From Candidatus Omnitrophota bacterium (lineage in GTDB: Bacteria; Omnitrophota; Gorgyraeia; Duberdicusellales; 4484-171): 64,000 nt of DNA. A program made the position numbers and the translations under genes. The stretch spans positions 208,703 through 272,702 of the forward strand of contig PMCS01000029.1 in the NCBI GenBank assembly GCA_003154195.1. The letters are read 5' to 3'. Below, piece after piece: positions 28,025-54,300 of this stretch. The notes under the pieces were generated by a model. That model saw only the letters and a list, made by a program, of their open reading frames with translations, made no database searches and was not told the origin of the DNA. Position 1 is the stretch's first letter. Every line of letters starts with the position of its first letter.

Positions 28025-28112
28025 ACTACCGCCTCAATCTGCGCCCCCGCCATCCCATAGATGGCGAGGTCTCGTCAATTCGTTTAACGAATTGACGGAC
28101 TTCGGGCTTGAT
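28025..28112. repeat. 88-bp dispersed repeat, copy B (inverted relative to 17559-17646), embedded in a larger repeat-module patch at 27900-28165
   Basis: Reverse complement matches copy A except for 2 nt at one end. Flanked by the modules taatgagacttcg, ggtagtcgaat, cccggagtaccgggcaagtttcatt and cgaagtctcatt. Confidence 0.8.
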
Positions 28113-28208
28113 AATTCAACTAAGCCCGGAGTACCGGGCAAGTTTCATTACGGCGAAGTCTCATTAAAAATGTGTTGAGATATTTCAATTATGTTATAAA
28201 ATGATAAA

Positions 28209-28601: not shown

Positions 28602-28661
28602 AAAATATTGGAATCACAATGATAGTTTAGGCAATAAGTCGTCCCGACCGAGGAGGCTAAT

Positions 28662-29492: not shown

Positions 29493-29494
29493 AT

Positions 29495-29560
29495 TTTTTG
29501 CGGAGCAAAAAATATATCCGCCGGAAAATGCCGGTTTAGCGTGCGGGCATTTTTCCGGTT
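29495..29560 (+). terminator. Tandem hairpins after the ExeA-like gene (possible terminator)
   Basis: ttttttgc-ggag-gcaaaaaa, then ccggaaaatgcc...ggcatttttccgg. No strong T-run follows the second hairpin. Confidence 0.35.
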
Positions 29561-29609
29561 AATGCGAAACAATTTTTAAACGGTTGAATTTCTCCATGCC
29601 GCGAAGCGG

Positions 29610-30932: not shown

Positions 30933-30937
30933 CGCAT

Positions 30938-37154: not shown

Positions 37155-37323
37155 GATAAAAGGCGTATTTCTTATTATTCTGGGAGCAGCCTGGATTGCT
37201 TTCGTTTATAATTTTTACACGTTTAGGCTTGAGCCGCCGTCATTGATTTCTAAGGTGGTTCTGGGTTTTATTCTGGGAGCGATAATGATGATAAACGGCA
37301 TGAGGATTTACCGAAGAAAATGA
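37138..37323 (+). CDS. Small 2-TM membrane protein
   Basis: 61 aa, hydrophobic. Overlaps both neighbouring genes by a few nt, suggesting coupling. Could be spurious. Confidence 0.3.
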   Translation: MKLINKIKGVFLIILGAAWIAFVYNFYTFRLEPPSLISKVVLGFILGAIMMINGMRIYRRK

Positions 37324-39274: not shown

Positions 39275-40954
39275 ATGTCTAAAGTTATTCTTTGTATCCC
39301 CCCTGATTACGATTATAATTTTCCCCCCTTAGGCACGCCGGTCTTACTGGGATTTCTTAAAAGCAAAGGAATTAAAGCCGGGCAGGTCGATTTAAATCTG
39401 GCTTACCGCGATTTTCTTTTATCGAAAATTAAAGGCAAGGGATTGACCGCCGGCGACAAGAAATTACTTTTGCGGCGGTTGGTAAATGATTTTTTTACCC
39501 AGCGGCTTAAAGGGCATTATTATTCCCAATTGTTACCGCGTAGGCGCGGTAAGGCCTTGGCAGATCTTCCTTACGGTAATAGCTCCAACAGCTCATTTTA
39601 TTTCACCGAGCGCCTTTTATCTTCGAAGTATCTTTTTCGTTATCTGGCGGATAAGGAGAACAATACTTTTTATCAATTCTATCTCGCCGAAAGAATTATC
39701 ACTCGTCTTAAAAAAGATAAGATTGATTTGATCGGTATTTCGGTGATCTCGCCTTCGCAGGCTATTCCGGCGCTTACTTTAGGATTATTGATAAAACAAC
39801 TTCTCCCGGATGTACATGTTAACCTCGGCGGGCAATGGGTGACATTATTCCGGGATGAACTTAAAAAACGTGATGATTTTTTTGCCTGCTTCGACAGTCT
39901 GATCGTTTTTGAGGGTGAAACGCCGCTCTATGCGTTGGTCGATGCTTGGCGTGGGAGTAAAAAGGCTTTGCCGCCCTTGGCTAACGTAATTACCCAAAAA
40001 AATAAAAAACCGTTGCTTAACCCGCGAGGCGAAGATATAAACGCTTTGGCTACGCCGGATTTTTCCGGGTTACCTTTAAACCGTTATGATTCGAGTAAGG
40101 TCACGCCGCACCTTACCTATGAGACTTCACGCGGTTGTTATTGGTCTAAGTGCGCTTATTGTGTCGATTTGCCTTTACCGAAACCGTCTTATCGGGCTAA
40201 AAGCGCCGATCGTGTTGCCGCCGAAGTCAAAGAGTTGATCAAGCGATTCGGCGTAACTGATTTGATGATGGGTGATCCCGGCATGGCGCCGCGCCAGATG
40301 CTCGAAATATCGCGCGCCTTAATCAAAAATAGCATAAAAATCAAATGGTGGACCATGGCTCGCCTTGACTCCGGGTTTAACCAGAAAATTTTTGCAACAG
40401 CTAAACAAGCCGGCCTTTTCCAGGTTAATTTCGGTTTCGAATCGGCGTGTGACCGGGTGTGCGATTTTCTCCATAAAGGCAACCGGCAGGCTATTTCTGC
40501 CCGAGTGATCCAGGATTGCGCGCAATCGGGTGTTCGGGTAGATTTGCAGACCATGATCGGTATGCCGGGGGAAACGCATGGTGACGCGATGGAAACCGTC
40601 GGTTTTTTGATCGAAAATAAAAAAGATATCGCCGCCGTGACTTTTAACATTTTTTATCTCACCCCGGGTAATTATGTCTATCACAGTCCTAGGAATTACG
40701 GGGTAAGTTTTAATAAAAATAAAGTTTTACCGTTTCAATTTTTTATTCCGTTTAAAAATAAGCATGGTATGACCGCAGACCAGGCCGGGTTCATTATGAA
40801 TGTGTATCATCAGCTTTTAGCCGGGGCTAACGCCGGAACTTCAGTCTCCAAAGACCGGCGCAAACGATTCGGAAAGGTAAGTTTTTCGCTATGCGGCGAA
40901 TCCATCGGGATCAAATGGGAAAAATACGCGTCAGGAAATATTGTGATTAAATGA
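39275..40954 (+). CDS. B12-binding domain radical SAM protein (second paralog)
   Basis: 559 aa. N-terminal B12-binding-like region and radical SAM motif CYWSKCAYC. Confidence 0.85.
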   Translation: MSKVILCIPPDYDYNFPPLGTPVLLGFLKSKGIKAGQVDLNLAYRDFLLSKIKGKGLTAGDKKLLLRRLVNDFFTQRLKGHYYSQLLPRRRGKALADLPYGNSSNSSFYFTERLLSSKYLFRYLADKENNTFYQFYLAERIITRLKKDKIDLIGISVISPSQAIPALTLGLLIKQLLPDVHVNLGGQWVTLFRDELKKRDDFFACFDSLIVFEGETPLYALVDAWRGSKKALPPLANVITQKNKKPLLNPRGEDINALATPDFSGLPLNRYDSSKVTPHLTYETSRGCYWSKCAYCVDLPLPKPSYRAKSADRVAAEVKELIKRFGVTDLMMGDPGMAPRQMLEISRALIKNSIKIKWWTMARLDSGFNQKIFATAKQAGLFQVNFGFESACDRVCDFLHKGNRQAISARVIQDCAQSGVRVDLQTMIGMPGETHGDAMETVGFLIENKKDIAAVTFNIFYLTPGNYVYHSPRNYGVSFNKNKVLPFQFFIPFKNKHGMTADQAGFIMNVYHQLLAGANAGTSVSKDRRKRFGKVSFSLCGESIGIKWEKYASGNIVIK

Positions 40955-43011
40955 GCGGACAAAATATTACGTTTTTTGAGGTAAAGGGTTTTTGCATGTG
41001 GCCATTTTTACGCGCCGGCCAAAAAATATTAATTAAAAAAATAGCCGGTTCGGAATTTAATCCCGGGGATTTGATGCTTTACCATGCCGACGGCCAGTTA
41101 CTTTGCCATCGTCTGCTGCGTAAAGAGAAAAAAAACGGTAGTTGGGTATTTTATTGCCGTCCGGATACCTCCGGCCCCGGCGGGGAACCGGTTAGTGAAA
41201 ATATGGTGGAAGGCAAAGTCGCAGCGGTGGTCAGCGCGAACAAAATAGTCGGCTTGGAAACGCCTTGGGCACGCTTCCGGGCGGTTATGATTCTATTTTT
41301 TTTGTCGCCGATTTTGGCTCATTTTAACCGACTATATAAAAAAATAAAAATTCTAAAAATATTAAAAAATAACTATTTGCTTATATTTATCCTATTGTGC
41401 GCGGCAATGGTAAGAATTTGGGGGATAGGCTTCGGATTGCCGAATACAAATTGCCGGCCGGATGAGGAACAAATCGTGGATATCGTAAAATCTCCATTGC
41501 ATAATTTTAATCCCGAAGCGTTTAATTACCCGTCCCTGTACAAATATATTAATTTTTGTTTTTATGGATTATATTTTATTTTTGGTTTATTTACCGGCAA
41601 ATATAGATTGCTGTCGGATTTTGTTAGAGAGGTTGTCGTTACAAATTATAAAGACCTTTATTTAATCAATAGGTTTCTCTCCGCGTCTTTTGGCGTGGCG
41701 ACGGTATTTATGTGCTATAAGGCAGCCGAAAGATTTTTTGATAGAAAAACTGCAATAATTTCCGCATTTTTTTTGAGTTTCGCATATCTTCACGTCAGAG
41801 ACTCTCACTTTGGAACTGTTGATGTCCCGGCAGTTTTTTTTGTTATGTGCTCCATGCTTTTTATCATAAAATCTCACCAGGATAACTTAATAAAAAACTA
41901 TATTTTATCCGGGGTATTTGCCGGGCTAGCCGCTTCTACTAAATATATCGGCATCTTATTAATTGCGCCGATGTTAATTGTTAATAGTTTAAGCCTATCT
42001 CTGACTAAAGGCGAAGATAAGGCGTTGGCGCATCCGCTTTCTCCTGCTAAAAAAATGTTGTTTTTTATAATCTTTTTTATCGCGGCCTTTTTGTTAGGGA
42101 CTCCATATGCGGTATTAGATTTTAATCATTTTATAAGCGATTACTTGGGGACAATAAAACGTTTCATCCATGGGGAAGACATCATTCTTGGTAAAGGATG
42201 GTGGTATCATTTAAGGTTTTCTTTACTGTTTGGTATGGGCTTTAGTTTATTTTTCGCATCATTAGCGGGAATCTTAGTACTTATAAAAATTAATTTTAAA
42301 AAAGCGTTTATACTATGTTCCTTTCCATTGGTATATTATGCCATAATCGGCCGGGGATATGGAGTGTTCTTGAGATATGCTATTCCGCTTGTTCCCTATC
42401 TTTGCATTACTGCCGCCGTATCCACTGTATATCTTATTAATGGTCTTGGAAAATATTTAAACCCAATCTTAAATAAAGCGGTAATGCTGATATTTCCATT
42501 TTTAATTATCTTGCCTTCGGTTTATAATATTTTACGTTTTGATATTTTGCTGTCAAAAAAGGATAATCGCTTAATCGCGGCAGAATGGATCAACAAGAAT
42601 CTTCCCGAAAGAAGTTCTATCGCAATTTTTGACTCCGGCTACGGGATCCAGCTTGCCCCGGCATCCCTGGGGTTATCGGATAAAGATATGAGCCGGTCGG
42701 ATAAAATAATAATGGATTACTTAAGAAACAATAAGATCAAAGGTTTCAACCTAGACGGTTGGAATGGCCAATCAAATATGTCAAAATATATCGTTTTAGA
42801 AGAATCGCCCCTGAAGAGATTTTGTTTAATTGATCCGGAACAGAAAGAAATTATACTAAAATCTTATTATCTTTTGGCAGAATTCAAGTCGATTAACATT
42901 GACAATAAATCTAACTGGTTTGATCAGGATGACTGTTTCTATATGCCGTTCGTGGGCTTTAAAGAAATCCAAAGACCGGGTCCAAATATCTATATCTATA
43001 AAAAGAAATGA
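40951..43011 (+). CDS. Fusion protein: N-terminal S24/S26 (LexA/signal-peptidase-like) domain with Cys in the nucleophile position, followed by a GT-C (ArnT/PMT-like) membrane glycosyltransferase
   Basis: 686 aa. N-terminus VKGFCMWPFLRAGQKILIKK ... GDLMLYHADGQLLCHRLLRK follows the G-[SC]-M-x-P ... GD ... K/R layout of S24/S26 peptidases. Then more than 10 TMs. Start overlaps the stop of the B12-rSAM gene. Confidence 0.55.
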   Translation: MSGQNITFFEVKGFCMWPFLRAGQKILIKKIAGSEFNPGDLMLYHADGQLLCHRLLRKEKKNGSWVFYCRPDTSGPGGEPVSENMVEGKVAAVVSANKIVGLETPWARFRAVMILFFLSPILAHFNRLYKKIKILKILKNNYLLIFILLCAAMVRIWGIGFGLPNTNCRPDEEQIVDIVKSPLHNFNPEAFNYPSLYKYINFCFYGLYFIFGLFTGKYRLLSDFVREVVVTNYKDLYLINRFLSASFGVATVFMCYKAAERFFDRKTAIISAFFLSFAYLHVRDSHFGTVDVPAVFFVMCSMLFIIKSHQDNLIKNYILSGVFAGLAASTKYIGILLIAPMLIVNSLSLSLTKGEDKALAHPLSPAKKMLFFIIFFIAAFLLGTPYAVLDFNHFISDYLGTIKRFIHGEDIILGKGWWYHLRFSLLFGMGFSLFFASLAGILVLIKINFKKAFILCSFPLVYYAIIGRGYGVFLRYAIPLVPYLCITAAVSTVYLINGLGKYLNPILNKAVMLIFPFLIILPSVYNILRFDILLSKKDNRLIAAEWINKNLPERSSIAIFDSGYGIQLAPASLGLSDKDMSRSDKIIMDYLRNNKIKGFNLDGWNGQSNMSKYIVLEESPLKRFCLIDPEQKEIILKSYYLLAEFKSINIDNKSNWFDQDDCFYMPFVGFKEIQRPGPNIYIYKKK

Positions 43012-44447
43012 TGGAAGTTTTTTTAAAAGAAGATCACGACGAAGCGCTGAAGATTTGGCGTAAACTAAGCGTTAAAAACCTGGATTTGGTTCATGTAGAC
43101 GCACATATTGATTTCGTAATGCATTACGCGCGCGATCCCCAGGAAATACTCGCCCAGGCGGTCAATTTAAAACAACTGAAACAAAATCTCGAGTACACAT
43201 TATCTTTCTTAGAGTATGAAAAAGATTTGGATAAACAAACCGATATCGGTAATTATATTTACCCGGCGATGCGCGAAGGCCTGGTTAAAAATTTCTGGTG
43301 GGTTATTCCCGGCGATGCCGGCTCTTTTGAGAAAAATTTTAAATTGATAAAAAGGATATTTACCCGGTCGTTTACCGGACAAAAAGTAAAATTAATACAC
43401 AAAGCAAAAGGGTTAGCTTTTATTAAGGCGTGGGGTAGGGAATTTTGGGCCTGCACTTTGGAGACCTTGCCGGTTTTTTCTCAACCTGTGCTTTTGGATA
43501 TTGATACGGATTTTTTAGTGGTCGGTGATTTATCGCGCGCCGATAATACTTGTGATATCGGCAAGCGCAGGCCCTGGATAATACCGGAGGTGTTAAGAGA
43601 AAAGTTAGCCGCAAAAATAAAAAGCCCCGTGATAACTACGATTGTTTACTCGACCAACGGCGGGTTTACGCCCATGGTTTATCGCTGTCTGGGCGATGAA
43701 TTAGCCTATAGTTTTAATCAGCAAAAATTTGCCAAAAGTTTTTGCCGTCGTCGGCAAGCCGCACAAAACTTTAAAAAATTTTTAGCTTCCGGTAAAAAAA
43801 GCGATTATTGGCGGGCGGTTGGCTTTGATCCGGCCTATCGCGACGATGACAATAATTACGGGCCGTTGTATTTGGCCAAAAACCGCTTTAACCCGGCGCA
43901 AAAAGAAGTCAAAAAAATATTTTGTGTTGATCCCAAAAATCCGGCGGCTTTAAAGAATATGGGTGTAATCTTTTTGCGAAAGAAAAAATACTTGAAAGCA
44001 TTAAACTGTTTTCATTCGCCGTTAAAACAAAAATCAATTAAAAAAGGGTTACGCGCGCAAATTATTTTCGGGTTAGCTCAGGCAAATTTTGGATTAAAAC
44101 GGTTGGATGAGGCGCAAAAATTGTTTGCTTTACATCGACGCCTTATGCCGTTGGCGGGCGCAAGCTATTATTGGGCGGCAGATATTTACCGGGTAAAAAA
44201 AGAGTATGCTTTTGCCGCCGCAAGCTACCGCCACGCTTTGCGTCTAGGCGTCGGCGGGTTGGATGTTTTAGCCAAGCTTTTAAGGGTTTCTTTTAAGCTT
44301 GGCAAGACACAAAGGGATGATATAATTGCTTATGTAAAAATGCGAACCGGTAGTTTTAAGATACCGGCTAAAGGCAGCAAGCGGGTTAAGCGGAAAATAA
44401 CGATTCTTAAGCGGTTAATGAGGGAGGCAGGGGTTTATGCAAGATAA
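43008..44447 (+). CDS. Hypothetical protein: N-terminal arginase/deacetylase-fold-like (UPF0489-like) domain with C-terminal TPR repeats
   Basis: 479 aa. LVHVDAHIDF and LLDIDTDFLVVGD resemble the DAHxD / SFDxDxxDP metal-binding motifs of ureohydrolases. C-terminal TPR-like helices. Overlaps both neighbours by 4 and 11 nt. Confidence 0.4.
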   Translation: MMEVFLKEDHDEALKIWRKLSVKNLDLVHVDAHIDFVMHYARDPQEILAQAVNLKQLKQNLEYTLSFLEYEKDLDKQTDIGNYIYPAMREGLVKNFWWVIPGDAGSFEKNFKLIKRIFTRSFTGQKVKLIHKAKGLAFIKAWGREFWACTLETLPVFSQPVLLDIDTDFLVVGDLSRADNTCDIGKRRPWIIPEVLREKLAAKIKSPVITTIVYSTNGGFTPMVYRCLGDELAYSFNQQKFAKSFCRRRQAAQNFKKFLASGKKSDYWRAVGFDPAYRDDDNNYGPLYLAKNRFNPAQKEVKKIFCVDPKNPAALKNMGVIFLRKKKYLKALNCFHSPLKQKSIKKGLRAQIIFGLAQANFGLKRLDEAQKLFALHRRLMPLAGASYYWAADIYRVKKEYAFAAASYRHALRLGVGGLDVLAKLLRVSFKLGKTQRDDIIAYVKMRTGSFKIPAKGSKRVKRKITILKRLMREAGVYAR

Positions 44448-44718
44448 AGAAATTCTGAAAAAGAATAAAAATATCGTCAGCCGCGCCATCGGCGCGGAAA
44501 CCGTGCTCTTACCGATCTGCAAAGATACTAAAGAGATGAATTGTATTTATACGCTGAATAAACCGGCGGCGCGTGTTTGGGAGCTGATTGACGGTAAACG
44601 CGGTTTAAGCCGGATTAAAAAAGATATTCTCAACGAGTTTGACGTAAACGCCGGCGAACTTGATAAGCTGATGGCGGCATTGCTGAAAGACTTAAAAGAT
44701 ATAAAAGCGGTTAATTAA
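44437..44718 (+). CDS. PqqD-family protein (stand-alone RiPP recognition element, RRE)
   Basis: 93 aa. IVSRAIGAETVLLPI ... IYTLNKPAARVWELIDGKRGLSRIKKDILNEFDV matches the PqqD-like wHTH pattern. Confidence 0.7.
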   Translation: MQDKEILKKNKNIVSRAIGAETVLLPICKDTKEMNCIYTLNKPAARVWELIDGKRGLSRIKKDILNEFDVNAGELDKLMAALLKDLKDIKAVN

Positions 44719-44734: not shown

Positions 44735-44944
44735 ATGAACAAACCCAAATTTAACCCGATCGTTACCCGTGTCAAGCTTAACCCCGAACAGGCAGTTTTG
44801 GCGTGCAGTTGTTATACAACAAACAGGAAATGCCCTGCCAACGGCACCGGCGGCCGAGTTGCCAACCGGAGCATTTGCCAGACCAATGTCTGTATTAATA
44901 ACTACTGCCTAAATGGAAACTCTGCAAACAGGTCATCAACTTAG
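44735..44944 (+). CDS. Candidate RiPP precursor peptide: 23-aa leader-like N-terminus plus 46-aa Cys/Asn/Ser/Thr-rich core with six Cys
   Basis: MNKPKFNPIVTRVKLNPEQAVLA | CSCYTTNRKCPANGTGGRVANRSICQTNVCINNYCLNGNSANRSST. RBS gggagg 6 nt upstream. Located between the RRE gene and the three SPASM radical SAM genes. Confidence 0.55.
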   Translation: MNKPKFNPIVTRVKLNPEQAVLACSCYTTNRKCPANGTGGRVANRSICQTNVCINNYCLNGNSANRSST

Positions 44945-44949
44945 GGGAG

Positions 44950-46029
44950 ATGCTTGCTCACGGATTAGCCTATCTTGAAGAGAAATTTTCCGATCAGCGG
45001 CATAAGCCTATAAATGGCCAGATCGATTTGACCTATCGCTGTGACTATAACTGTCGGCATTGCTATTGTAAAGGCAGTGAAAATATCGGCCGGGAATTGA
45101 CCACGGCCCAGGTCAAAAAAGTTTTAGATGAAATATATGCCGCCGGTTGTTTCTGGCTTACCTTAACCGGCGGCGACCCCTTGATCCGGCCGGATTTTAA
45201 AGAAATTTATGCTTATGCAAAACAAAAGGGGTTTGTCGTTACGATTTTAACCAATGGTTATCGCCTTAATCGCAAGTTGGTTGATTATTTCACCAAATAC
45301 CCGCCGCTTTCAATCGATATAACCCTAAACAGTCTGGATAAACTTATCTATGAAAAAATAATTGGATTTCCCGGTAAAGCCTTATCTCGTGTGTTGGATA
45401 ATATTCAATATGCATCGCGTAAGGGTATAGCTTTAATTATTAAAGCCAATGCCCTCAAAGAGAATAAAAACCAGATCGGCAGGATTAAGCGCTGGGCGCA
45501 TAATTTGCCGGGCAAATCTAAAGAAAACCTGTTTAATTTTCGTTACGACAATGTTATCTATCCGCGCTTAGATGGCGATCTTGAGCCTTGCCGCCACAGG
45601 CTTGATCAAAAAGAGCTGGGTGTTGTTTACGGGCTTGATTCGGATATTAAAAAAGACCGGCGAAATTATTTAAAAAGGGGATTTCCTTCCGGTAAAATAC
45701 CGCATCGTCCTTTGTATTTTTGTAATACTTTCCAAACGCAATTTTTTATTGATCCGTTTGGACGGTTAAAATTTTGCCCGCATACCGACAAATTCAGTGT
45801 GGATTTACGCAAGGTTTCTTTTGTCCGGGGTTTTTATGAGGAGTTCCCTAAGCTTACAACGGTGAGATTTAAAACTAATTCGCCTTGCCGCACTTGCCGT
45901 ATTCGTAAAATGTGCCGTTCTTGCCCGGCCGCTGCCCTTGCGGAGACCGGTGATGAAGAAAAGCCGGTTGAATATTTTTGCCATATGGCGCATCAATCGG
46001 CAAAAGATACTTTGCGCCTAAAAAAATAA
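44950..46029 (+). CDS. Radical SAM / SPASM-domain peptide-modifying enzyme (maturase 1)
   Basis: 359 aa. N-terminal CDYNCRHCYC. C-terminal SPASM auxiliary-cluster motif CRTCRIRKMCRSCPAAA plus the upstream Cys pair FCNTF ... KFCP. Confidence 0.85.
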   Translation: MLAHGLAYLEEKFSDQRHKPINGQIDLTYRCDYNCRHCYCKGSENIGRELTTAQVKKVLDEIYAAGCFWLTLTGGDPLIRPDFKEIYAYAKQKGFVVTILTNGYRLNRKLVDYFTKYPPLSIDITLNSLDKLIYEKIIGFPGKALSRVLDNIQYASRKGIALIIKANALKENKNQIGRIKRWAHNLPGKSKENLFNFRYDNVIYPRLDGDLEPCRHRLDQKELGVVYGLDSDIKKDRRNYLKRGFPSGKIPHRPLYFCNTFQTQFFIDPFGRLKFCPHTDKFSVDLRKVSFVRGFYEEFPKLTTVRFKTNSPCRTCRIRKMCRSCPAAALAETGDEEKPVEYFCHMAHQSAKDTLRLKK

Positions 46030-46031: not shown

Positions 46032-46895
46032 ATGAAAACCGGTGCTTTTAATGATTTTTGGCAGGGTATTCACGCCGACGCGGATACCAGGCATTTACCG
46101 TTGCGGGTAATGTTTGAGTTGACTTATAAATGCAACTTTCATTGCCGGCACTGCTATGTGCCGAAAAGCTGGCGCCGCAGAAAAGAATTAAACACCAAGG
46201 AAATATTAGGTATTATTAAACAACTTAAAACGGCCGGATGTTTTTATCTGGGATTTACCGGCGGCGAAATATTTATGCGTCCGGATATCTGGAAGATTTT
46301 AGAATTTTCGCGTAAGCAGGGGATGCAGATAATTTTGTATACCAACGGTTTTCTTGTTGATAAAAAAAATGCCCGGCTTATTGCCGGTATAGGGGTAAAT
46401 AAAGTAGATATTACATTGCCGGGAATAAGTGAAAAAGTTTTTGACGGTGTCACGGGAGTTAATGGCTCGCATAAGCGGGTATTTTCAGCAATTGATTTTT
46501 TACGTCGGAATAAAATAGACCTTGGCTTTAAAACCTGTTTGCTTAAGGCTAACCATGGTGAAATCAAGGCGATCGAAGCTTTTTGTGCCGGAATTAAAGC
46601 GCCGCATCGGCTTGATGATGCGCCTGTGCCGCCGATTGACCGATTGATGGCCGATCAGGCTAAACCAACCAAGTTATTTAAGTGCGGAAGCGGAATCGCA
46701 CAGTGCGCCATAACGCCGCAGGGCCAGGTAAAATTATGTCCGTTGGTTGATTGGCCGAAGATTAAGATATCCCAGAACCAAAAATTTTATCAGATTTGGG
46801 AAAAATTGCCGGAAATGATTAAAGCCGGTAAGTGCCGCCGGCCTTGTCCGTGCACCTTAGGCCGGTTAACGGAGGAGCTATGCGCTATTCAATAA
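46032..46895 (+). CDS. Radical SAM / SPASM(twitch)-domain enzyme (maturase 2)
   Basis: ATG at 46032 lies directly after the stop of maturase 1; the ORF-track start at 45978 would overlap by 50 nt. CNFHCRHCYV; C-terminal Cys cluster CGSGIAQCAITPQGQVKLCP ... CRRPCPC. Confidence 0.8.
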   Translation: MKTGAFNDFWQGIHADADTRHLPLRVMFELTYKCNFHCRHCYVPKSWRRRKELNTKEILGIIKQLKTAGCFYLGFTGGEIFMRPDIWKILEFSRKQGMQIILYTNGFLVDKKNARLIAGIGVNKVDITLPGISEKVFDGVTGVNGSHKRVFSAIDFLRRNKIDLGFKTCLLKANHGEIKAIEAFCAGIKAPHRLDDAPVPPIDRLMADQAKPTKLFKCGSGIAQCAITPQGQVKLCPLVDWPKIKISQNQKFYQIWEKLPEMIKAGKCRRPCPCTLGRLTEELCAIQ

Positions 46896-47890
46896 ACCTC
46901 GTTAGAAAGGAGAAAATTAGCGTGGATGTGCCTGCGCATAATAAGTTATCCCCCAGGAGAGGGCGTCTTTCTAACGGGGTAAAGTTTAAGATCGCCGATA
47001 TTGTTTTTAAGCTTACCAGCCGTTATCCGGTGATTTTCAAGGATAACCGGGAGCTTTATTTGCGTAAATACGGTAATTTTATTTATCGCGGTAAACAAAA
47101 CTCTGCGATAAACATATCGGTAGATGTGGTGGAAAAATTTCCCTTTTTTCCAGGCAAAAAAGTTTTTGCGGTGTATGAAGACGGCGGTGACGAGGAGCGA
47201 TGGCGGCTTTGGGAAAACAAGAACGAATATGTTTACCATTGTCCGATCCCCGAACGAGAATCTATGGCTTTCGTTGCTAAAGATTTTTCTTCTGCCCGGG
47301 CCTATGTCCCGCCGTTTGAGGGTAGATTTGCCTGGGATATCAAGGATATTCTTTATGACCTGATGCAAGTCATGCTGATTAACTATTTTGCTTATAACAA
47401 AAACGGATTGATCTTGCATGCGGCGGCGGTCAAAGATGGGCGGCAGGCCATAGTTTTTGCCGGTAAATCCGGTAACGGCAAAAGCACTACAGCGCGGTTA
47501 TGGCATCGGTATAGTAAAGCGGTGGTTTTGAACGATGACCGGGTGATTGTGCGTAAAACTGCCAAAGATTTTTTTGCTTATAGCGGGCCATGGCATGGAG
47601 AGTTTGGCAACTCGGTAGAGGCGTTTCCTAACCAGGCCCGTTTGTGCGGTTTATTCGTTTTAGAACACGCTAAAAAAAATTTTTGTTGTACTCTTCCCAG
47701 AGAAGAAGCATTTCGAACTTTATACCCTACGCTTTTTTCGGTATTTTGGAATCGCCTGTTAATGGATAATACATTGAGTTTGTGCGAAGAGCTGATAGAT
47801 ACGGCAGCCGTTTCGCGCTTGGGATTTGTTAAGGATAAAAATATAATATCTTTTGTGAGGCAAGAATTGGATGAAAGAGATTCAGTATAA
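46880..47890 (+). CDS. HPr kinase/phosphorylase C-terminal-domain-like protein (HprK-related kinase, RiPP-associated type)
   Basis: LILHAAAVKDGRQAIVFAGKSGNGKSTTA matches the HprK P-loop region. Probable ATG at 46880 after the RBS ggagg; the ORF track opens at 46832. Confidence 0.65.
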   Translation: MRYSINLVRKEKISVDVPAHNKLSPRRGRLSNGVKFKIADIVFKLTSRYPVIFKDNRELYLRKYGNFIYRGKQNSAINISVDVVEKFPFFPGKKVFAVYEDGGDEERWRLWENKNEYVYHCPIPERESMAFVAKDFSSARAYVPPFEGRFAWDIKDILYDLMQVMLINYFAYNKNGLILHAAAVKDGRQAIVFAGKSGNGKSTTARLWHRYSKAVVLNDDRVIVRKTAKDFFAYSGPWHGEFGNSVEAFPNQARLCGLFVLEHAKKNFCCTLPREEAFRTLYPTLFSVFWNRLLMDNTLSLCEELIDTAAVSRLGFVKDKNIISFVRQELDERDSV

Positions 47891-48908
47891 GAAATTCAGT
47901 TTGGCGGCGCATTCAAACAATTTAGAGCGGGGGCGGCCCAGCTATTGTCAAATGGAGCTTACTTATGCCTGTGGTTTGCGTTGTCCGTATTGTTATGCCG
48001 GAGGATATAATTGTTCCGCGCGTATTGCCCAAGAGATGAATACGGTTGAATTAAAGAAGATCATCGATGAGTTAAAGAGCCTCGGGGTCTTGTGGGTCTG
48101 CTTTACCGGCGGCGATCCTTTAATGCGCAAGGATTTCTATGAGCTTTATACTTACGCGCGAAGACAAGGTTTCTTGATCATTGTTTTTACCAGCGGATAT
48201 TCATTGACGAAAAAACACTTGGATCTATTCAGGCGCCAGCCGCCATTTAATATTGAGATAACGCTTAATGCGGTAGAAGAAAAGCTTTATGAAAAAATAT
48301 CCGGTGTTCGCGGTTCATTCGGGAGAGTTATGGCTGCGATTGAAGCTTTGCGCCGGAATAAATTACCGCTTAAAATAAAAACGATGGTAACTACGCTAAA
48401 CTTGCATCATCTTGCCGAAATAAAAAAATATTTGCGGGGAATCGGTTTGAAATTCTATCCGGATTATTTTTTAAACTCCGGTTTTGATAACGATAGGCGC
48501 CCACTGGCATTTCAGATACCGCGGGAAGCGGTCCCCGGCCGGATAAACCCTAAAGAAAATATTTGCGCTCGAGTATCGCCAAAGGGTAAAACCAGGCCAA
48601 GCCCTTTTTTTACCTGCATTGTGGCTGCCGGAGATGGATTTCAGCTCGACCCTTACGGCAATATCTCATTGTGTTTTTCTATACGTAATCCTAAAATAAA
48701 TATTCTCGAGACAGGCATTAATTTGAGGCTAAAAAATCTAGTTAAATATTTTGCCGGATTGGATTTCAAGACCGATTCAAAATGTAAAAGTTGCGCTAAG
48801 CGGGATAAGTGCGGGTGGTGCCCGGGCAAGGCATTTGTAGAGACAGGTAGCTTGGAGAAACCAGTTGATTATTGTTGTAAATTAGTCGGGGTTTATGGGA
48901 ATCAATAA
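47871..48908 (+). CDS. Radical SAM / SPASM-domain enzyme (maturase 3)
   Basis: 345 aa. CGLRCPYCYA. C-terminal SPASM motif CKSCAKRDKCGWCPGKA. Start overlaps the stop of the kinase gene. Confidence 0.85.
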   Translation: MKEIQYKKFSLAAHSNNLERGRPSYCQMELTYACGLRCPYCYAGGYNCSARIAQEMNTVELKKIIDELKSLGVLWVCFTGGDPLMRKDFYELYTYARRQGFLIIVFTSGYSLTKKHLDLFRRQPPFNIEITLNAVEEKLYEKISGVRGSFGRVMAAIEALRRNKLPLKIKTMVTTLNLHHLAEIKKYLRGIGLKFYPDYFLNSGFDNDRRPLAFQIPREAVPGRINPKENICARVSPKGKTRPSPFFTCIVAAGDGFQLDPYGNISLCFSIRNPKINILETGINLRLKNLVKYFAGLDFKTDSKCKSCAKRDKCGWCPGKAFVETGSLEKPVDYCCKLVGVYGNQ

Positions 48909-50547
48909 AAAAGATTTACTGCTTCCGTTTAAAATAGTAGTTCGGCGGCGTTACTTAAAAAGTTGGGTTATTACAACGTTTTTGGCGCTGGTTGCCGCGG
49001 GCGCCGGGTTGGCGGTTCCTTACCTGGTCAAGTTGACGGTGGACGAGGGAATCACCAAAAAAAATCTTACATTTTTTTTACTTTTGTGTCTGGCGGCAGG
49101 GATTGTGGTTTTATCGAAATATATTTTCGATGCGATTGTATCTTTGCGCCGAACGGCCTTGATGGCAAAAATACGCTTTGACTTCAACCGCCGAGTCTTC
49201 GAAAATATGTATGCGATGCCTCAATCATGGTTTGCCAAAAAAGGCGCGGGAGAAGCGATTTACGCGATTGATAACGACAGCGCTGCGCTTATCAATATTG
49301 TCGGCGCGACCGCAAACGGGGTTTTTATTGAAGCGGTCAGTGTTATCGCCACATTGGCGATAATATTATCGCTTAATACGAAGATCGGCTTAACTGTAAT
49401 CTCGTTCCTGCCGGTGATCTACTTTTTAAGCCGTCGCCGGTTCAAAAGATTGGGCGAAATCTACAAAGATGTGGCCGGAAATGCCGAGGGGATTCTTAAT
49501 TTCTTAGAAGAAAGTTTTTGGCGTTCTTACTTGATTAAAATTTTTAATGCGGCGTCGGCTGCGGTACGCCGTTATTCGCGTTTGTTGATCAAGGATACGC
49601 GGTTAACAATAAAACGTGAACGCCAGGAAGCATGGTCGTCATTGGCCCCTGCGATCTTGCCGCTGGTTGTGACGGGTGTGATCTATATTGTGTCGGGCTA
49701 TCAGGCAATTACCGGCCATCTAAGCTTAGGCACAATTGCCGCAATCGGAGGTTATATTTATCAATTCATTTCATCTTCCAGCCAATTGCTATTTAATTGG
49801 CAAGATCTGCAACCAGGATTGATTTCTGCCCAGCGCCTTGCGCCGTTGTTAACGCCGGGCAAAGCGCATTGTACAGCCGACGAGACGCCCGCGGTGGTTT
49901 TAAGCGGTGCCATAGAAATAAGCAGATTAAATTTTTCTTATGCCGGCGGACGAGATATTTTCGACGGTTTAAATCTTGATATCCCTGCCGGTGAATATAC
50001 AGTGGTTACCGGCCCTTCGGGCTGCGGCAAGACTACTCTGTTGAATTTGATCATGCGTCTCTATCCGACGGAGAAAGGCGAGATCTTAATCGACGGCAAG
50101 AATGTAAATTCACTACCGCGATCGTTGCTGGGCACGCAGATTATTCTTTGCCCCCAGGAGCCGATGCTTTGGAATGCGACAGTTTCCGAAAATATCGCCT
50201 ATCCGGCTTTAGCTTTTAGTGAAGACGATCTAAAAAATGCTGCGGCGCTAAGCGGTGCCGATCAATTTATTTCTAATTTAGAAAAAGGCTATGAAACGAC
50301 GATCGGTGAAAACGCAACGCGCCTTTCGCAGGGTCAGAAGCAGCGTATTTCTTTATCGCGCGCTTTAATAAAGCAGCCGAAAATATTATTACTGGATGAG
50401 GCTTTTAGCGGTTTACCGGAAGAAGAGGAAACATCGATTATCGCACGGTTGCGTACGCAATTTCCCAAAATGACGATTATTGCCGCAACGCACCGGTTGG
50501 CGGGCTTAAAGAATTGTGAGCGCATTATAAAATTAGGAGCAGAGTAA
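48895..50547 (+). CDS. ABC transporter, fused permease-ATPase exporter (no N-terminal C39 peptidase domain)
   Basis: 550 aa. 6-TM region, then Walker A GPSGCGKTTLLN, signature LSQGQKQRISLSRAL, Walker B ILLLDEAFSG. Confidence 0.85.
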   Translation: MGINKKDLLLPFKIVVRRRYLKSWVITTFLALVAAGAGLAVPYLVKLTVDEGITKKNLTFFLLLCLAAGIVVLSKYIFDAIVSLRRTALMAKIRFDFNRRVFENMYAMPQSWFAKKGAGEAIYAIDNDSAALINIVGATANGVFIEAVSVIATLAIILSLNTKIGLTVISFLPVIYFLSRRRFKRLGEIYKDVAGNAEGILNFLEESFWRSYLIKIFNAASAAVRRYSRLLIKDTRLTIKRERQEAWSSLAPAILPLVVTGVIYIVSGYQAITGHLSLGTIAAIGGYIYQFISSSSQLLFNWQDLQPGLISAQRLAPLLTPGKAHCTADETPAVVLSGAIEISRLNFSYAGGRDIFDGLNLDIPAGEYTVVTGPSGCGKTTLLNLIMRLYPTEKGEILIDGKNVNSLPRSLLGTQIILCPQEPMLWNATVSENIAYPALAFSEDDLKNAAALSGADQFISNLEKGYETTIGENATRLSQGQKQRISLSRALIKQPKILLLDEAFSGLPEEEETSIIARLRTQFPKMTIIAATHRLAGLKNCERIIKLGAE

Positions 50548-52116
50548 ATGCAATTTGCGGCTTTTAAGGGTGATTTAAATATGAAACATTTTTCCCACGC
50601 TAAGGGTAAACGATTCGATTTAAATGCATCGACTTCGGTGGCCCAGCAAAAGATGCATCTTTTGGAGACGCTTAAAGGCCTGGGCACAATAGTTCCTATG
50701 GATGATGATATAAAATTAGATGATTATAAAACGCTTTGTGCGCGTCCGGATACTATCCTGGTTACTGTGCACCATGCTTTGCCTTGGGCGCAGGTTCCTC
50801 GGCGGCTCTTGCTTCATTCTTTGGGTGATTTTATGTTGACCAGTGTTTATTTTGATTACGAACACTTTGCCGGCAATACCATAAATTTAATGACCAGCCG
50901 TTTGCAGGCGCAGCGCCTTAAAGAGCATTTGAGGCAAGCTGCGCCTGGCCTTGGTGTTTTTACTCCACGCCTTAAAGTTGATAATTTTTATCCGCCAAGC
51001 CCTAAAGAAAAAATAGCGGCGCGGGAAAAAATGAAACTGGCTAAAGACACCAAGCATATTGTTTATGCCGGGCGTTGGCTTTCTAACAAAGGAATCTGCC
51101 AGGCGGTTAGGGCGCTTAATTTATGGCCGTTGTCTAATATTAAAATTTCTTTTGCCGGTAATTTTGAACCAGGATTTGTGATCAGCCAGACCGGGACGAA
51201 TCATCATACTTTTTCTTCTTATTTTGAACGCGAGGCTCTGCGGCGTAATTGCCATACGCGGTTAGATTTACTTAAAGCTCATGGCCCGCAGGCTTTGCGC
51301 GAACTATTGTGGTCGGCGGATTTATTTGTTTATCCGTCGATCCATGAAGATGAAAATTTCGGCATGGTACCGCGCGAGGCAGTATTGTGCGGCGTGCCGG
51401 TTGTGGTAACGGATTTTTGCGGTCTTGGCCAGTTAGGCCGTGGTGTCGGCGGATTACTACCCACTTACCCCACATTAGCCGGGCCGCGGTATAGCCTTAA
51501 AACTTTACGTGATTTAATGACAGAAGGATTAAAGACCACCAAAGACAAATTAAAGAAAAATATTCGTTTTGTCTTTCAAGAGTGTGACCGAATTCAAGCG
51601 CGCGCAGATTTAAAACGCGCGGCTGAAACTTTATTGCACCAACGATTAGTAAAAGATCTGCCTAAGCCTAAAGAGGCCAGGAGTGAATTGCTTGCGCGAT
51701 TATTGCGTTACGCTGACCCCGGATTTTTAGAGGCAGTGTTAGAAAAAAACAAACCCTTGCCTGAGGGGTTGCTGGTGGATGGTACAGGTTGTTATAATAA
51801 AGAATTTGCTTACCATAAATTTTTAAGTGCCATCCAGGGTTTTTATACCACAGCCGCCCAGCCGCCGCAAATTGAAGCAGGGTTGGTTTTGCGGGGATTT
51901 TTCCGCTTAGCCTTATGGCAGGAAGAAAAAGCTTTGGTCGAGAATGGTTTCCCCGGGCCGCGCGTTAAGCGTTATAGCGATAAGGATTGGCATGATTTGC
52001 TTGCCTGTGTAGAAATACAGCTTGATCAGGAGATAGTTATTTATCCGCGTACGCCCGATCAGCTGCGCCTGGCGCAGGAGTTAGTGGGGTTGGGCTATCT
52101 GGCGCCGGATAGTTGA
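50548..52116 (+). CDS. Glycosyltransferase family 1/4-like protein
   Basis: 522 aa. GT4 C-terminal motif EDENFGMVPREAVLCGVPVVVTDFCGLGQL. The start may be the ATG at 50581. Confidence 0.5.
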   Translation: MQFAAFKGDLNMKHFSHAKGKRFDLNASTSVAQQKMHLLETLKGLGTIVPMDDDIKLDDYKTLCARPDTILVTVHHALPWAQVPRRLLLHSLGDFMLTSVYFDYEHFAGNTINLMTSRLQAQRLKEHLRQAAPGLGVFTPRLKVDNFYPPSPKEKIAAREKMKLAKDTKHIVYAGRWLSNKGICQAVRALNLWPLSNIKISFAGNFEPGFVISQTGTNHHTFSSYFEREALRRNCHTRLDLLKAHGPQALRELLWSADLFVYPSIHEDENFGMVPREAVLCGVPVVVTDFCGLGQLGRGVGGLLPTYPTLAGPRYSLKTLRDLMTEGLKTTKDKLKKNIRFVFQECDRIQARADLKRAAETLLHQRLVKDLPKPKEARSELLARLLRYADPGFLEAVLEKNKPLPEGLLVDGTGCYNKEFAYHKFLSAIQGFYTTAAQPPQIEAGLVLRGFFRLALWQEEKALVENGFPGPRVKRYSDKDWHDLLACVEIQLDQEIVIYPRTPDQLRLAQELVGLGYLAPDS

Positions 52117-52988
52117 GGTTTTAAATACCCATTTTTTTGTAAAACCAGTTTTAGTCCGAATTCTTTAGCGATTTTGTGGAAATAATTTAGATCACTGCGA
52201 AAACTATTTACACTGCTTTGCTGGGTGTCGAAGATTCTGCCGCAAAATTTCTGGTATAAACCAGCTTTAACCTTTGGGCTTTTGCGTTTAAGTTTATTGA
52301 TCCACCATAAATCAAGATCATCGATTTTTTCGCTATCCTTGCGTGGAGTTGGGTTAAGGCATACTCCGCATTTAGAGCACAAGGCTTTTACTTGTTTTAG
52401 ATAGGCAGAGGGTTTTTTGCGCCACCACGGGGTGTGTATATCAAATGCAGTTTTAGTTTTTAAGATTATATCGATCGCCGCGGCAACTTCGCAGAAATAA
52501 GCGCCTTGGGGGTTGATTGAAGCACTCCAGCTATTTTGTATCCAGCAACTTTCAACGGCGTTAATATAACGGTTGCCCAGAGCTTCTTTTGAGCGCAGCA
52601 TAATTGGGGCATGAAAGATTTGCCCGTGGGTGTGATTATTGGGTAGGATAGCGCCGAAAGTATCAGCAATAATGGGCGCATATTTTTTAAAGCGTTTGTC
52701 CAGAGTGCTCCATAGGCCCAGTTTTTCTGGAGGAAACTTTTTTTGCAAGTATCGGCATATCTCTTTGAATTTTGGATGTAATAATGGTTCGCCGCCCATG
52801 ACCCCGATCATGGTCGGAGTTTTAGCGATACCCTCGACTGCCGCCTTAAAATAATCCAAATCCATCATGTACGGTTTTTTATGATGTCCGACTAAACGGG
52901 TGCAATTGGCGCAGCGATAGATGCAGGCGTTGGTGACTTCGATTTGGATTGCTTCTTTTAAGATGATCGGCTTAAGCATATCAACCAT
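52095..52988 (-). CDS. Radical SAM domain protein (fourth rSAM of the locus, minus strand)
   Basis: 297 aa. VTNACIYRCANC and GGEPLLHP. C-terminal CSKCGVC. Its 3' end overlaps the 3' end of the GT gene by 22 nt. Confidence 0.75.
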   Translation of the reverse strand: MVDMLKPIILKEAIQIEVTNACIYRCANCTRLVGHHKKPYMMDLDYFKAAVEGIAKTPTMIGVMGGEPLLHPKFKEICRYLQKKFPPEKLGLWSTLDKRFKKYAPIIADTFGAILPNNHTHGQIFHAPIMLRSKEALGNRYINAVESCWIQNSWSASINPQGAYFCEVAAAIDIILKTKTAFDIHTPWWRKKPSAYLKQVKALCSKCGVCLNPTPRKDSEKIDDLDLWWINKLKRKSPKVKAGLYQKFCGRIFDTQQSSVNSFRSDLNYFHKIAKEFGLKLVLQKNGYLKPQLSGAR

Positions 52989-53046: not shown

Positions 53047-53904
53047 ATGATAGAGAAAGAAGACGACAAAAATTACGCTTATCTGGCGGCCCATTTGAAG
53101 ACACTTGAGTCCGCTAAAGAAATTCTTCACGCCTTAGAGAAGCAGGGGATCGAAGCAATAATATTAAAAGGGCTCCACCTGGCCGTTAAGATTTACGACG
53201 AGCTAAACCGTCAACCGGGATCGGATATTGATCTTTTGCTAAAGCGCGCTGACATTTTCCGCGCCGAGCCGATTTTAAACGAATTGGGCTGGCGTCCTCG
53301 CGCGCCGGTCTTGCGGGATTTGGCCGATGGTAATAAACCGTGCGCGCTTAACAGCCTGATGTTTTTTCGCCCCGATAGTCTGGTCGTGCTGCATCTACAC
53401 TGGCATATCATTAACTCGACCTGGCCGCTGAACAATTATGCCAAATCCATCAATATGGAAGAAATCTGGCAAGCGGCAACCGCCGGAACGCTTGACGGCG
53501 CGCCCATCAGAGAGTTAAAACCCGAACACCTTATCATTTATTTATGCTGCCACGGATTGATTCACTATTTTGCCAAGCCGGTTTATGTTGACGACATTAA
53601 AACCGCTCTGGTACGTTTTAAAGATAAGATCAATTGGGATTTTTTGTATGGGCAAGCCCAAGAGTGGGGCGTGCGCTGGATAGTTGACTATTGTATCAAA
53701 TATATTGAAAAACCCAGGATTGGCCGATACACTAAGACTTATTGGCGGTATTTTTTCCATGAAAAAGGGATAACCGGGAAAATGTTATTTTTGTATCGGA
53801 CGTTTTTTCCCAAAAAAATTGTTATGGCTGCCGCGCACAACTTGCCGCTTGCCCAGATTGGCTTTAAACTTTACATGGATCGTCTTGAAAACATTAGTAG
53901 ATAA
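53047..53904 (+). CDS. Nucleotidyltransferase-family protein (PF14907-like, the type recurrent in lasso/RiPP clusters)
   Basis: 285 aa. Pol-beta-like NTase motif GSDIDLLLKRAD preceded by the GL..A region. Confidence 0.5.
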   Translation: MIEKEDDKNYAYLAAHLKTLESAKEILHALEKQGIEAIILKGLHLAVKIYDELNRQPGSDIDLLLKRADIFRAEPILNELGWRPRAPVLRDLADGNKPCALNSLMFFRPDSLVVLHLHWHIINSTWPLNNYAKSINMEEIWQAATAGTLDGAPIRELKPEHLIIYLCCHGLIHYFAKPVYVDDIKTALVRFKDKINWDFLYGQAQEWGVRWIVDYCIKYIEKPRIGRYTKTYWRYFFHEKGITGKMLFLYRTFFPKKIVMAAAHNLPLAQIGFKLYMDRLENISR

Positions 53905-54300
53905 ATATGCGTTTTTGTCTTTAAAGTTGATAGATCGGGGATATTTAGCGCCGGATAAAATCGCCTGGCATAAAAATCGCTTCTTAAGCAAATATGGCTT
54001 AAGGTATCCGTTTTCCTGCAAGACTAATTTTAGCCCGAATTGTTTGGCGATCCGGTGAAAATAACTTAAGTCGGAGCGGAATTGGTTAATGTTATTTTGG
54101 TACTCGTCGAAAATCGGACCACCATACCTTTTGTACAGCCCGGCTTTGACTTCAGGGCTGGTAATTTCAGTTTGGATTGCTTCTTTTGCGACGATTGGTT
54201 TAAGCGTGTCAAATATTATAACAGATTCCGGTTTATTTTTACTACTTGATTCACGATATGTCGTAAATTGGTCATTATTTGCTTTCAAGAAAAAAATCAA
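53785..54300 (-). pseudogene. Decayed partial duplicate of the 52095-52988 radical SAM gene (internal deletion; N-terminal and C-terminal pieces fused)
   Basis: Translation FDTLKPIVAKEAIQTEIT-SPEVKAGLYKRYGGPIFDEYQ ... FRSDLSYFHRIAKQFGLKLVLQENGYLKP parallels the intact gene (MLKPIILKEAIQIEVT ... KVKAGLYQKFCGRIFDTQQ ... FRSDLNYFHKIAKEFGLKLVLQKNGYLKP). DNA at 54170-54260 matches 52945-53035. The rSAM CxxxCxxC motif is lost. Confidence 0.55.

Follow-up and report, generated by a model that had tools for sequence, protein, structure and literature searches.

A ScmC-family kinase-like protein in a radical SAM peptide cassette of an Omnitrophota bacterium

We describe a gene at positions 46880-47890 (+ strand, 336 aa) of a 64,000-nt stretch of DNA from a Candidatus Omnitrophota bacterium (assembly GCA_003154195.1, contig PMCS01000029.1); this whole stretch is called the window throughout. 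The gene encodes a P-loop kinase-like protein that is a member of the HprK/PEPCK superfamily, on the divergent branch formed by the ScmC family (PF27840). It lies in a cassette for peptides that are made by ribosomes and then modified post-translationally (RiPPs), together with genes for a PqqD-family RiPP recognition element (RRE), radical S-adenosylmethionine (rSAM) enzymes and a Cys-rich precursor peptide. Comparative analysis suggests that this cassette is an rSAM-containing relative of two known systems, namely those producing linear polyphosphorylated peptides (LPPs) and those producing phosphorylated lasso peptides, and that it is widespread in poorly cultured phyla. Within this pathway, the ScmC protein is rather probably an ATP-using peptide kinase dedicated to the cassette. 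Given such a role, we propose the C-terminal residue of the precursor as the phosphorylation site only tentatively, being slightly more inclined to doubt this assignment than to assert it.

A divergent branch of the HprK/PEPCK superfamily

The gene starts with an ATG located 5 nt past a GGAGGA Shine-Dalgarno sequence and is wedged between two rSAM genes (46032-46895 and 47871-48908), overlapping each of them by 16-20 nt. The segment IVFAGKSGNGKSTTARL (residues 191-207, nt 47450-47500) contains the Walker A motif GKSGNGKST (residues 195-203, nt 47462-47488, + strand), and the same open reading frame (ORF) encodes an invariant His at 47417-47419 and an NDDRV motif at 47531-47545, both on the + strand. 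An earlier reading of this DNA, made by a model from the letters alone (the sequence-only reading), had described an HPr-kinase-like gene with a P-loop inside an rSAM block, and both the motif and the coordinates were reproduced here. In an alignment of 48 diverse relatives, the residues H180, G195, G200, K201, T203, D219, D220, R221 and P237 are invariant. The order and spacing of the elements His...GxSGxGKS...DD in the family are the same as in HprK.

A protein database contains an identical protein (P0001) and 55 homologues, nearly all of which carry a precomputed match to PF27840 (ScmC). This Pfam family is newer than our local copy of Pfam; the assignment is the precomputed annotation, the score of which is not visible. 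The local copy itself yields AAA_33 alone, below the threshold. Among the NCBIfam models, the ScmC model TIGR04249 matches around the P-loop with an E-value of 4.4e-6 and 26.2 bits (cutoff 125), and other below-cutoff matches near the P-loop are to HprK-related kinase B (1.5e-5), HprK-related kinase A (7e-5) and a PEPCK model (4e-3). At E ≤ 1e-30, a profile search against 1.84 billion representatives retrieved 3,286 clusters, a number that rises to 13,943 at E ≤ 1e-10.

The connection to HprK is seen at the level of both profiles and structure. A broad family profile aligns the His, Walker A and DD elements to the HprK of L. casei (1jb1) with an E-value of 1.1e-4, and a narrower profile found HprK in the PDB at E = 0.011. 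Sequence searches of the PDB with the family are swamped by generic P-loop matches to ABC transporters, and the HprK matches are real but weak. PF07475 (Hpr_kinase_C) is matched by 30 of the 48 relatives (best E-value 1.6e-5) and PEPCK_ATP by 17 of them, and a Herpetosiphon member of the family is named [quoted passage not shown] in UniRef. When the AlphaFold2 (AF2) model of the window protein (pLDDT 88, pTM 0.85) was compared with the PDB using Foldseek, the matches were exclusively chains of ATP-dependent PEPCK (E = 2e-5, query TM-score (TMq) 0.40) and HprK/P (E ~1e-3). Membership in the superfamily follows from the invariant motifs, the profile matches and the fold taken together. The P-loop is not a chance occurrence, because there are database homologues carrying PF27840, the residues are invariant, and the fold matches are confined to PEPCK and HprK.

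The protein is nevertheless not a bona fide HprK. Neither PF02603, PF07475 (even at E ≤ 1) nor TIGR00679 matches the window protein, and in the AF2 model its N-terminal half is a β-rich domain unlike that of HprK; the conclusion rests on this different N-terminal half, on the lack of the HprK N-terminal domain and on the lack of PF07475 and TIGR00679 matches. The description of the gene as an HprK homologue is therefore correct at the superfamily level, by fold and motifs, and incorrect if a PF07475-type protein is meant, the family being ScmC instead.

Conservation of the gene neighbourhood

One genome per GTDB species was scanned with the kinase, which gave at least 554 relatives, and 80 loci were fetched. 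Iterated hidden Markov models (HMMs) built from the window proteins were run on every ORF of 86 loci. Neighbourhood counts refer to 34 non-redundant loci that extend at least 8 kb on both sides, and consider features within about 10 kb. A precursor-like ORF was found in all 34 loci, PqqD and rSAM in 33 each, a signal peptidase I-like (SpI-like) peptidase in 26, a nucleotidyltransferase (NTase) resembling PF14907 in 20, an ABC exporter in 16 and a GNVR protein in 10. The most frequent gene order is PqqD - rSAM/SPASM - precursor - ScmC - peptidase - NTase (- ABC), and the window contains the Omnitrophota/Elusimicrobia variant of this cassette, which has three rSAMs. The sequence-only reading had treated the kinase as a lasso-type tailoring add-on; instead, it is a core member of the cassette. 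The set of kinase, PqqD, rSAM and precursor is conserved across many phyla.

The hosts include Omnitrophota, Elusimicrobia, Planctomycetes, Desulfobacterota, Chloroflexi, Acidobacteriota, Aminicenantes, Nitrospirae and others, and those of the fetched loci cover about ten non-Bacillota phyla. The Chloroflexi include the cultured hosts Herpetosiphon giganteus and H. geysericola; in H. giganteus (L072) the cassette is simpler and runs PqqD-rSAM-precursor-ScmC-peptidase. The DNA of the window belongs to a metagenome scaffold of Stordalen Mire, and the closest genome match is an Elusimicrobia metagenome-assembled genome (MAG) from the same fen (68% identity).

Some loci show other arrangements. 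Two delta-proteobacterial loci, L081 (970-2920) and L059 (9416-10567), contain PqqD and ScmC with no rSAM gene in between. L081 has a three-Cys precursor between the two genes and is cut 970 nt upstream, and the sole precursor-like ORF of L059 is on the other strand at a distance of about 9 kb. Both loci could be rSAM-less, LPP-like variants, or the rSAM could be encoded elsewhere. On a 3-kb contig of a Woesearchaeota MAG (L035, 854-2262), a ScmC homologue adjoins a precursor-like ORF and is accompanied by an rSAM, which could be a true archaeal occurrence or a binning error.

Precursor peptides ending in Ser or Thr

The window encodes a 69-aa Cys-rich precursor peptide (44735-44944, + strand) preceded by a strong ribosome-binding site. 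Its leader is MNKPKFNPIVTRVKLNPEQA, and the predicted core, VLACSCY...NSANRSST, has six Cys residues and ends in Ser-Ser-Thr. NCBIfam contains no model for these peptides. An HMM seeded with this ORF retrieved 91 unique short ORFs as candidates, mostly located just upstream of ScmC. They comprise a minimal type, with the leader KKxYxKPxhxxVxLxPEEAVL and the core xxCK-x(10-14)-C-x(4-6)-C-x(3-5)-GS, and a window type, with the leader KFKPxITRVKLNPEQAVL and a core that begins with xCxCY, contains more Cys residues and ends in (S/T)S or ST.

The C-terminal residue is Ser in 75 and Thr in 12 of the 91 candidates (87/91 in total), compared with about 9% Ser and 3-4% Thr among background ORFs in the same loci. 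No internal Ser or Thr of the precursors is as conserved as the C-terminal one. The four candidates that end otherwise are truncated copies of 38-43 aa. The family of precursors is now defined by a conserved leader, three to six Cys residues and a C-terminal Ser or Thr, and with so clear a signature its biochemistry becomes directly testable.

The RRE-binding motif in the leaders of lasso peptides and LPPs is YxxPxh (PMC13381572, PMC12710340); it is found in the minimal-type leaders, and the window type has K-F-x-P. We predict that the leader is cleaved after PEQA20, releasing the core VLACSCY...NRSST. This prediction uses spacing only: the Ala at Pro+12 (P-x11-A) mirrors the LPP motif Px9Fx[T/A], which is cut after T/A, so that a small residue stands 12 positions after the Pro in both. 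The Phe, the HQ and the remaining positions of the LPP leader YxxPxVLxHQxIxFETxxS are not found in the window family.

The truncated copies mentioned above (L008 8920-9051, L009 4612-4728, L017 2576-2692 and L022 3377-3496) preserve the leader together with the CxC that opens the core, but lack the remainder and the terminal Ser/Thr. Such copies could have arisen by decay of duplicates, or they could be leader-only peptides.

The nucleotidyltransferase and its fusions

The second enzyme to which the sequence-only reading drew attention is a Pol-beta-type NTase (53047-53904, + strand, 285 aa). The motif GSDIDLLLKR (residues 58-67, nt 53218-53247), within which the DxD lies, is present as described, and the assignment to PF14907 (NTP_transf_5) is confirmed by a profile match of 121.5 bits (E = 5.6e-35; gathering score 31.2). 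The DxD motif, which is D60/D62 in the window protein, is kept in 41 of 46 sequences. The AF2 model (pLDDT 89.8) matches ANT(2'')-Ia and LnuA. PsmN, the NTase of the lasso peptide pseudomycoidin, was modelled on the ANT(2'') structures 5cfs and 4xje (PMC6993621), and the model of the window NTase finds the same templates.

The gene is located about 5 kb from the kinase, beyond a minus-strand gene (52095-52988) that encodes a divergent rSAM-like protein with a CxxxCxxC motif and a weak PF04055 match, syntenic in loci L001 and L007. A 171-aa ORF on the minus strand (53785-54300), which overlaps the NTase gene at the 3' end of the latter, is a copy of this rSAM-like gene with an internal deletion: it shows 67% identity over the last 61 residues, and its N-terminus matches too. 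It is probably a gene remnant.

Across all fetched loci, eight ORFs join the NTase and the leader peptidase in a single protein. Pfam confirms the fusion of Peptidase_S24 and PF14907 in L043 (10507-12117) and of Peptidase_S24, GNAT and PF14907 in L068 (3892-5973). It also identifies Peptidase_S24 with GNAT in L084 (10671-11705), and peptidase fusions are also noted for L012, L014, L019, L032, L033 and L050. The GNAT acetyltransferase, which in some of the fusions stands between peptidase and NTase and in L005 adjoins the NTase, may be a further recurrent tailoring enzyme. In two Acidobacteriota loci, L061 (4492-10959) and L076 (10749-17756), an S24-like peptidase domain stands at the start of a giant ORF. 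This ORF exceeds 2,100 aa, contains DUF11 repeats and has a Peptidase_C25 (gingipain-like) domain at the C-terminus; it is either a single protein or a read-through artefact.

Other genes of the cassette

The cassette, with the kinase and NTase genes, resembles an operon. The genes between 40951 and 52116 are all on the + strand and abut or overlap each other, and the NTase gene stands past the minus-strand gene. The first gene (40951-43011) encodes an archaeal/SipW-type SpI-like leader peptidase domain (approximately 40951-41349) fused to a PMT_2 GT-C glycosyltransferase. The best match of the peptidase domain is TIGR02228 (E = 1.7e-7, 31 bits), which is below the cutoff of 51.85, whereas the SpI-like peptidases of canonical relatives exceed it (57.2 bits in L050, 55.3 in L036 and 62.9 in L084). 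At nt 40987-41004, the domain has Cys15 (GFCMWP) where its relatives and the LPP peptidase LppS carry the catalytic Ser (GxSMxP), with the His (CHRLL) and the Asp retained; the replacement is also noted for L001 5724-6140, L007 4073-4480 and L034 11129-12244. By its residues, the domain could be either a Cys-nucleophile variant or inactive.

Upstream of pqqD is a gene for a UPF0489 (FlmR_OhkR_N) + TPR protein (43008-44447, +) that is conserved in the closest relatives. The PqqD-family RRE (44437-44718, +) matches PF05402 with E = 5e-9, and its best NCBIfam match is the lasso PqqD chaperone (lasso_PqqD_Bac), below cutoff. Among the sigma-70-like sites of the region, the best is TTGGCA-16-TATAAT (44299-44326, +), which has an extended TG and is situated upstream of pqqD and the precursor gene, at a distance of about 110 nt; a scan of the region for promoters and terminators gave no more sites than shuffled sequence.

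The three rSAM maturases are encoded on the + strand at 44950-46029 (rSAM/SPASM maturase 1, with CxxxCxxC and a C-terminal Cys cluster), 46032-46895 (maturase 2, with a shorter C-terminal Cys domain) and 47871-48908 (rSAM/SPASM maturase 3). All of them match PF04055 (E = 1e-23 to 1e-25), and CxxxCxxC and a C-terminal CxxCx5CxxC-type Cys cluster are visible in the translations, with no match to PF13186 at E ≤ 0.01. They are paralogues of the single canonical rSAM, with full-length identities of 29-36% and E-values down to 1e-75. The cassette continues with an MsbA-like ABC exporter that comprises permease and ATPase without a C39 peptidase domain (48895-50547, +; best match MsbA, E = 7.6e-80), and with a GT4 glycosyltransferase conserved in the closest relatives (50548-52116, +). 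We saw no lyase or cyclase domain in the cassette.

Comparison with known systems

LPPs were described in Bacillota, where their clusters lie inside capsular polysaccharide loci (Popov et al., Nat Commun, May 2026, PMC13381572). In this system LppK polyphosphorylates Ser3 of the core, LppS cuts off the leader upon its presentation by the RRE, and LppN was inactive in a heterologous host; the paper names no radical SAM enzymes and treats LPPs as restricted to Bacillota (PMC13381572). The core set of SpI-like peptidase, discrete RRE, HprK-like kinase, NTP transferase and MsbA-like exporter is present in the window in its entirety, and the setting in a polysaccharide locus and the [Y/F]xxP-type RRE motif in the leader are also shared. 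The LPP supplements give no Pfam accession numbers, and LppN is here a presumptive PF14907 member and LppK an HprK-like kinase of unspecified Pfam family. In contrast to LPP clusters, the present cassettes contain dedicated rSAM/SPASM enzymes, one to three in number, and their core is rich in Cys, and for this reason the product is probably cross-linked rather than linear. Furthermore, the kinase is a ScmC-family member, and the last residue of the precursors is Ser or Thr, with an Ala at the equivalent of LPP Ser3 in the window. The window peptidase carries Cys where the Ser nucleophile would be and forms one protein with a GT-C. Instead of Bacillota, the hosts are Omnitrophota, Elusimicrobia, Chloroflexi, Acidobacteriota, Desulfobacterota and others.

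In phosphorylated lasso peptides, such as paeninodin, the C-terminal Ser of the precursor is phosphorylated by HprK homologues (PMC8498205). For pseudomycoidin, the substitutions D158A/D159A in the kinase PsmK abolish phosphorylation, and PsmN puts one or two hexoses on the phosphate, the variant D134A/D136A being inactive (PMC6993621). D219/D220 of the window kinase correspond to the DD pair of PsmK. The systems of paeninodin (PadeK) and pseudomycoidin (PsmK/PsmN) share with the window an HprK-superfamily kinase with this DD pair, a partner NTase whose fold is ANT(2'')-like and which has a DxD motif, an RRE of the PqqD/B1 type with a YxxP leader, and a precursor ending in Ser (here Ser/Thr), which is the phosphorylation site in lasso peptides. 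The difference is in the remaining enzymes: no lasso cyclase (Asn-synthase-like) or B2 protease (transglutaminase-like cysteine protease) was found among window ORFs of at least 120 aa or in loci L001-L006; rSAM/SPASM enzymes and an SpI-like peptidase are there instead. The sequence-only reading was right in this respect, having placed the gene among rSAM/SPASM neighbours outside a lasso context.

The SynChlorMet (SCM) cassette ScmC/ScmD/ScmE/ScmF (TIGR04248-04251) likewise combines an HprK-like ScmC, a PqqD homologue and two rSAM/SPASM proteins. However, the window proteins score far under the corresponding cutoffs (26.2 against 125 for ScmC, 17.3 against 100 for ScmD, and 50-72 for ScmE and 44-68 for ScmF against 400), and canonical relatives are likewise below these equivalog cutoffs. 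On these scores, the window proteins form a sister group rather than the SCM cassette proper. The cassette is a database definition, and no experimental work on ScmC or SynChlorMet was found in the literature searched. Literature searches on PF14907/PF27840 and on HPr kinase + radical SAM + PqqD returned nothing relevant, their one match concerning lasso clusters only. The occurrence of kinase and NTase outside lasso clusters, noted in the sequence-only reading, is real; it is not unprecedented, LPP clusters (PMC13381572) having both enzymes as well, and the pairing of ScmC with PqqD and rSAM/SPASM proteins is already part of the SCM definition.

Ranthipeptide and sactipeptide clusters (PapB, AlbA) resemble the present cassette in their rSAM/SPASM maturases, PqqD-type RRE and Cys-containing precursors, and a canonical relative aligns with the PapB model from end to end. 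However, all scores are far below the family cutoffs, the thioether chemistry here would be an extrapolation, and no known cluster of this kind carries the kinase/NTase/SpI-peptidase set.

Phosphorylation is rare among peptide natural products, and a survey of phosphorylated RiPPs in 2025 contains a handful of cases, with no rSAM-type peptide (PMC12639078). The present analysis joins three things that have been treated separately, namely the ScmC family, the lasso kinase/NTase pair and the LPP machinery. One module recurs in all of them; its parts are an RRE, a leader of the YxxP type, a kinase resembling HprK, an NTase of the PF14907 family and a peptidase of the SpI type. Here it appears together with radical-SAM cross-linking, and in phyla of which few members are cultured. 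That the cassettes repeatedly lie in polysaccharide loci recalls observations on LPPs and paeninodin and hints at a role at the cell surface.

Proposed pathway and alternatives

Family membership, fold, motif conservation, gene neighbourhood and the Ser/Thr-ended precursor family are the observations from which we infer the chemistry and order of steps that follow. PqqD would bind the conserved leader of the 69-aa precursor (K-F-x-P-x-h...NPEQA in the window, YxxPxh...PEEA in its relatives, lasso/LPP-like), and the three rSAM/SPASM paralogues would cross-link the Cys-rich core, probably via thioethers. The kinase would then use ATP to phosphorylate a Ser or Thr of the peptide, most likely the near-invariant C-terminal one, as the HprK homologues of lasso peptides do. 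The PF14907 NTase, perhaps with the GT4 and the GT-C, may add a further group onto the phosphate, as PsmN does in pseudomycoidin. Finally, the SipW-type peptidase domain would cut off the leader after ...PEQA, and the MsbA-like pump would export the product. The suggestion of a phosphorylated, possibly further decorated rSAM peptide, already made in the sequence-only reading, gains support of a comparative kind from the conserved core of the cassette, the NTase-peptidase fusions and the 87 of 91 precursors ending in Ser or Thr.

Several points weigh against this scheme. The window protein is under every curated HprK-type cutoff, its sequence link to HprK is limited to about 60 residues around the P-loop, and biochemical data for any ScmC-family protein were not found in the literature searched. 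The phosphorylation site is uncertain because the kinase of LPP, the only characterised non-lasso system, targets core Ser3, the equivalent of which is the Ala noted above. An NTase within 10 kb is absent from 14 of the 34 complete loci, and with LppN inactive in its heterologous host, the function of the NTase is unproven even in the model system. The Cys at the catalytic Ser position of the window peptidase also counts here. In addition, the neighbourhood statistics use home-made HMMs derived from window proteins, and the 80 loci were picked by kinase similarity.

The kinase could instead act on an internal Ser or Thr. The phosphate could be retained as on LPP Ser3, or be transient, leading to dehydroalanine/dehydrobutyrine (Dha/Dhb) and reaction with Cys as in class III/IV lanthipeptides, and the C-terminal Ser/Thr would then serve, for example, in recognition by the rSAM or the exporter. 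Such a role agrees with the modification of core Ser3 by LppK, with cores rich in Ser/Thr/Asn and Cys, and with the xxCK(T/S) that opens many minimal-type cores. However, the cassette has no visible lyase or cyclase domain, no internal position rivals the C-terminal one in conservation, and the Cys chemistry is already explained by dedicated rSAM/SPASM enzymes, so we regard an internal site as unlikely.

It is distinctly improbable that the ScmC protein is not a peptide kinase at all but a P-loop ATPase or phosphorylase, acting as a scaffold or chaperone for the rSAM and RRE, in carboxylate activation or in phosphorolysis. The global fold is indeed closer to PEPCK (TMq 0.40) than to HprK (0.2-0.3), the large N-terminal beta domain is unrelated to that of HprK, and HprK itself is also a phosphorylase. 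Nevertheless, the exact HprK constellation (His, GxSGxGKS/T and DD-R) is invariant, and all characterised RiPP-associated relatives (PadeK, PsmK and LppK) are Ser kinases, which favours the peptide kinase.

The cassette is embedded in an exopolysaccharide (EPS) locus, and the kinase and the NTase might serve the EPS pathway by phosphorylating or nucleotidylating a sugar or lipid carrier, being mere neighbours of the rSAM peptide genes. The 10 of 34 loci with a GNVR protein, and the distance of about 5 kb between kinase and NTase, with a minus-strand gene in between, are compatible with this. We consider it very improbable, and a pure EPS role was rejected: the kinase gene overlaps rSAM genes on both sides and in nearly all loci has the precursor next to it, also in the 24 of 34 without GNVR within 10 kb, the NTase is fused to the leader peptidase in eight ORFs, and the LPP and lasso precedents link both enzymes to peptides. 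As for a bona fide HPr kinase/phosphorylase regulating carbon metabolism, the P-loop and DD motifs of HprK are present, but this is refuted for practical purposes by the domain, profile and N-terminal fold evidence given above and by a neighbourhood that ties the family to PqqD, rSAM and precursor genes. No phosphotransferase system (PTS) gene is among the annotated neighbours of the kinase, where small ORFs were not screened for PF00381.

The peptide-kinase reading could be extended to a large unrecognised class of RiPPs, in which a phosphate on the invariant C-terminal Ser/Thr of rSAM/SPASM-cross-linked, Cys-rich peptides is a handle by which the PF14907 enzyme and the neighbouring glycosyltransferases couple the peptide covalently to the EPS of the surrounding locus, giving a peptide-primed or peptide-capped polysaccharide. 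We offer this as a speculation to which we attach little weight. Its scope would be given by the at least 3,000 clusters (50% identity) that match the kinase family, in ten or more phyla.

The surrounding polysaccharide locus

The EPS locus of the window includes genes for a Wza-like protein (31890), a GT2 (33044) and a DegT aminotransferase (33769) on one side of the cassette, and for a Wzz/GNVR/BY-kinase (Wzc-like, 54542), a GT4 (56451), a GT2-methyltransferase (57763), a Wzy_C protein (59312) and a PMT_2 protein (60988) on the other. Two B12-binding rSAMs are encoded upstream of the cassette on the + strand. One (39275-40954) is syntenic in L001, L007, L027 and others, its role in the peptide pathway not being established, and the pathway membership of the other (35691-37154) is uncertain; C-methylation of the peptide or an activity on the polysaccharide might be their function. 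Between the two genes is that of a 628-aa multi-pass membrane protein with no Pfam match (37320-39206).

Beside the cassette, the region 27083-31882 encodes one or more AAA_22 ATPases, an HD_5 protein and a coiled-coil protein. Flanking AAA_22 and HD_5 genes also occur in distant relatives (L001 1-3114 and L003 18655-20936), and the coiled-coil protein is common to the window and L001. This set may be a conserved regulatory or accessory module of polysaccharide/peptide islands.

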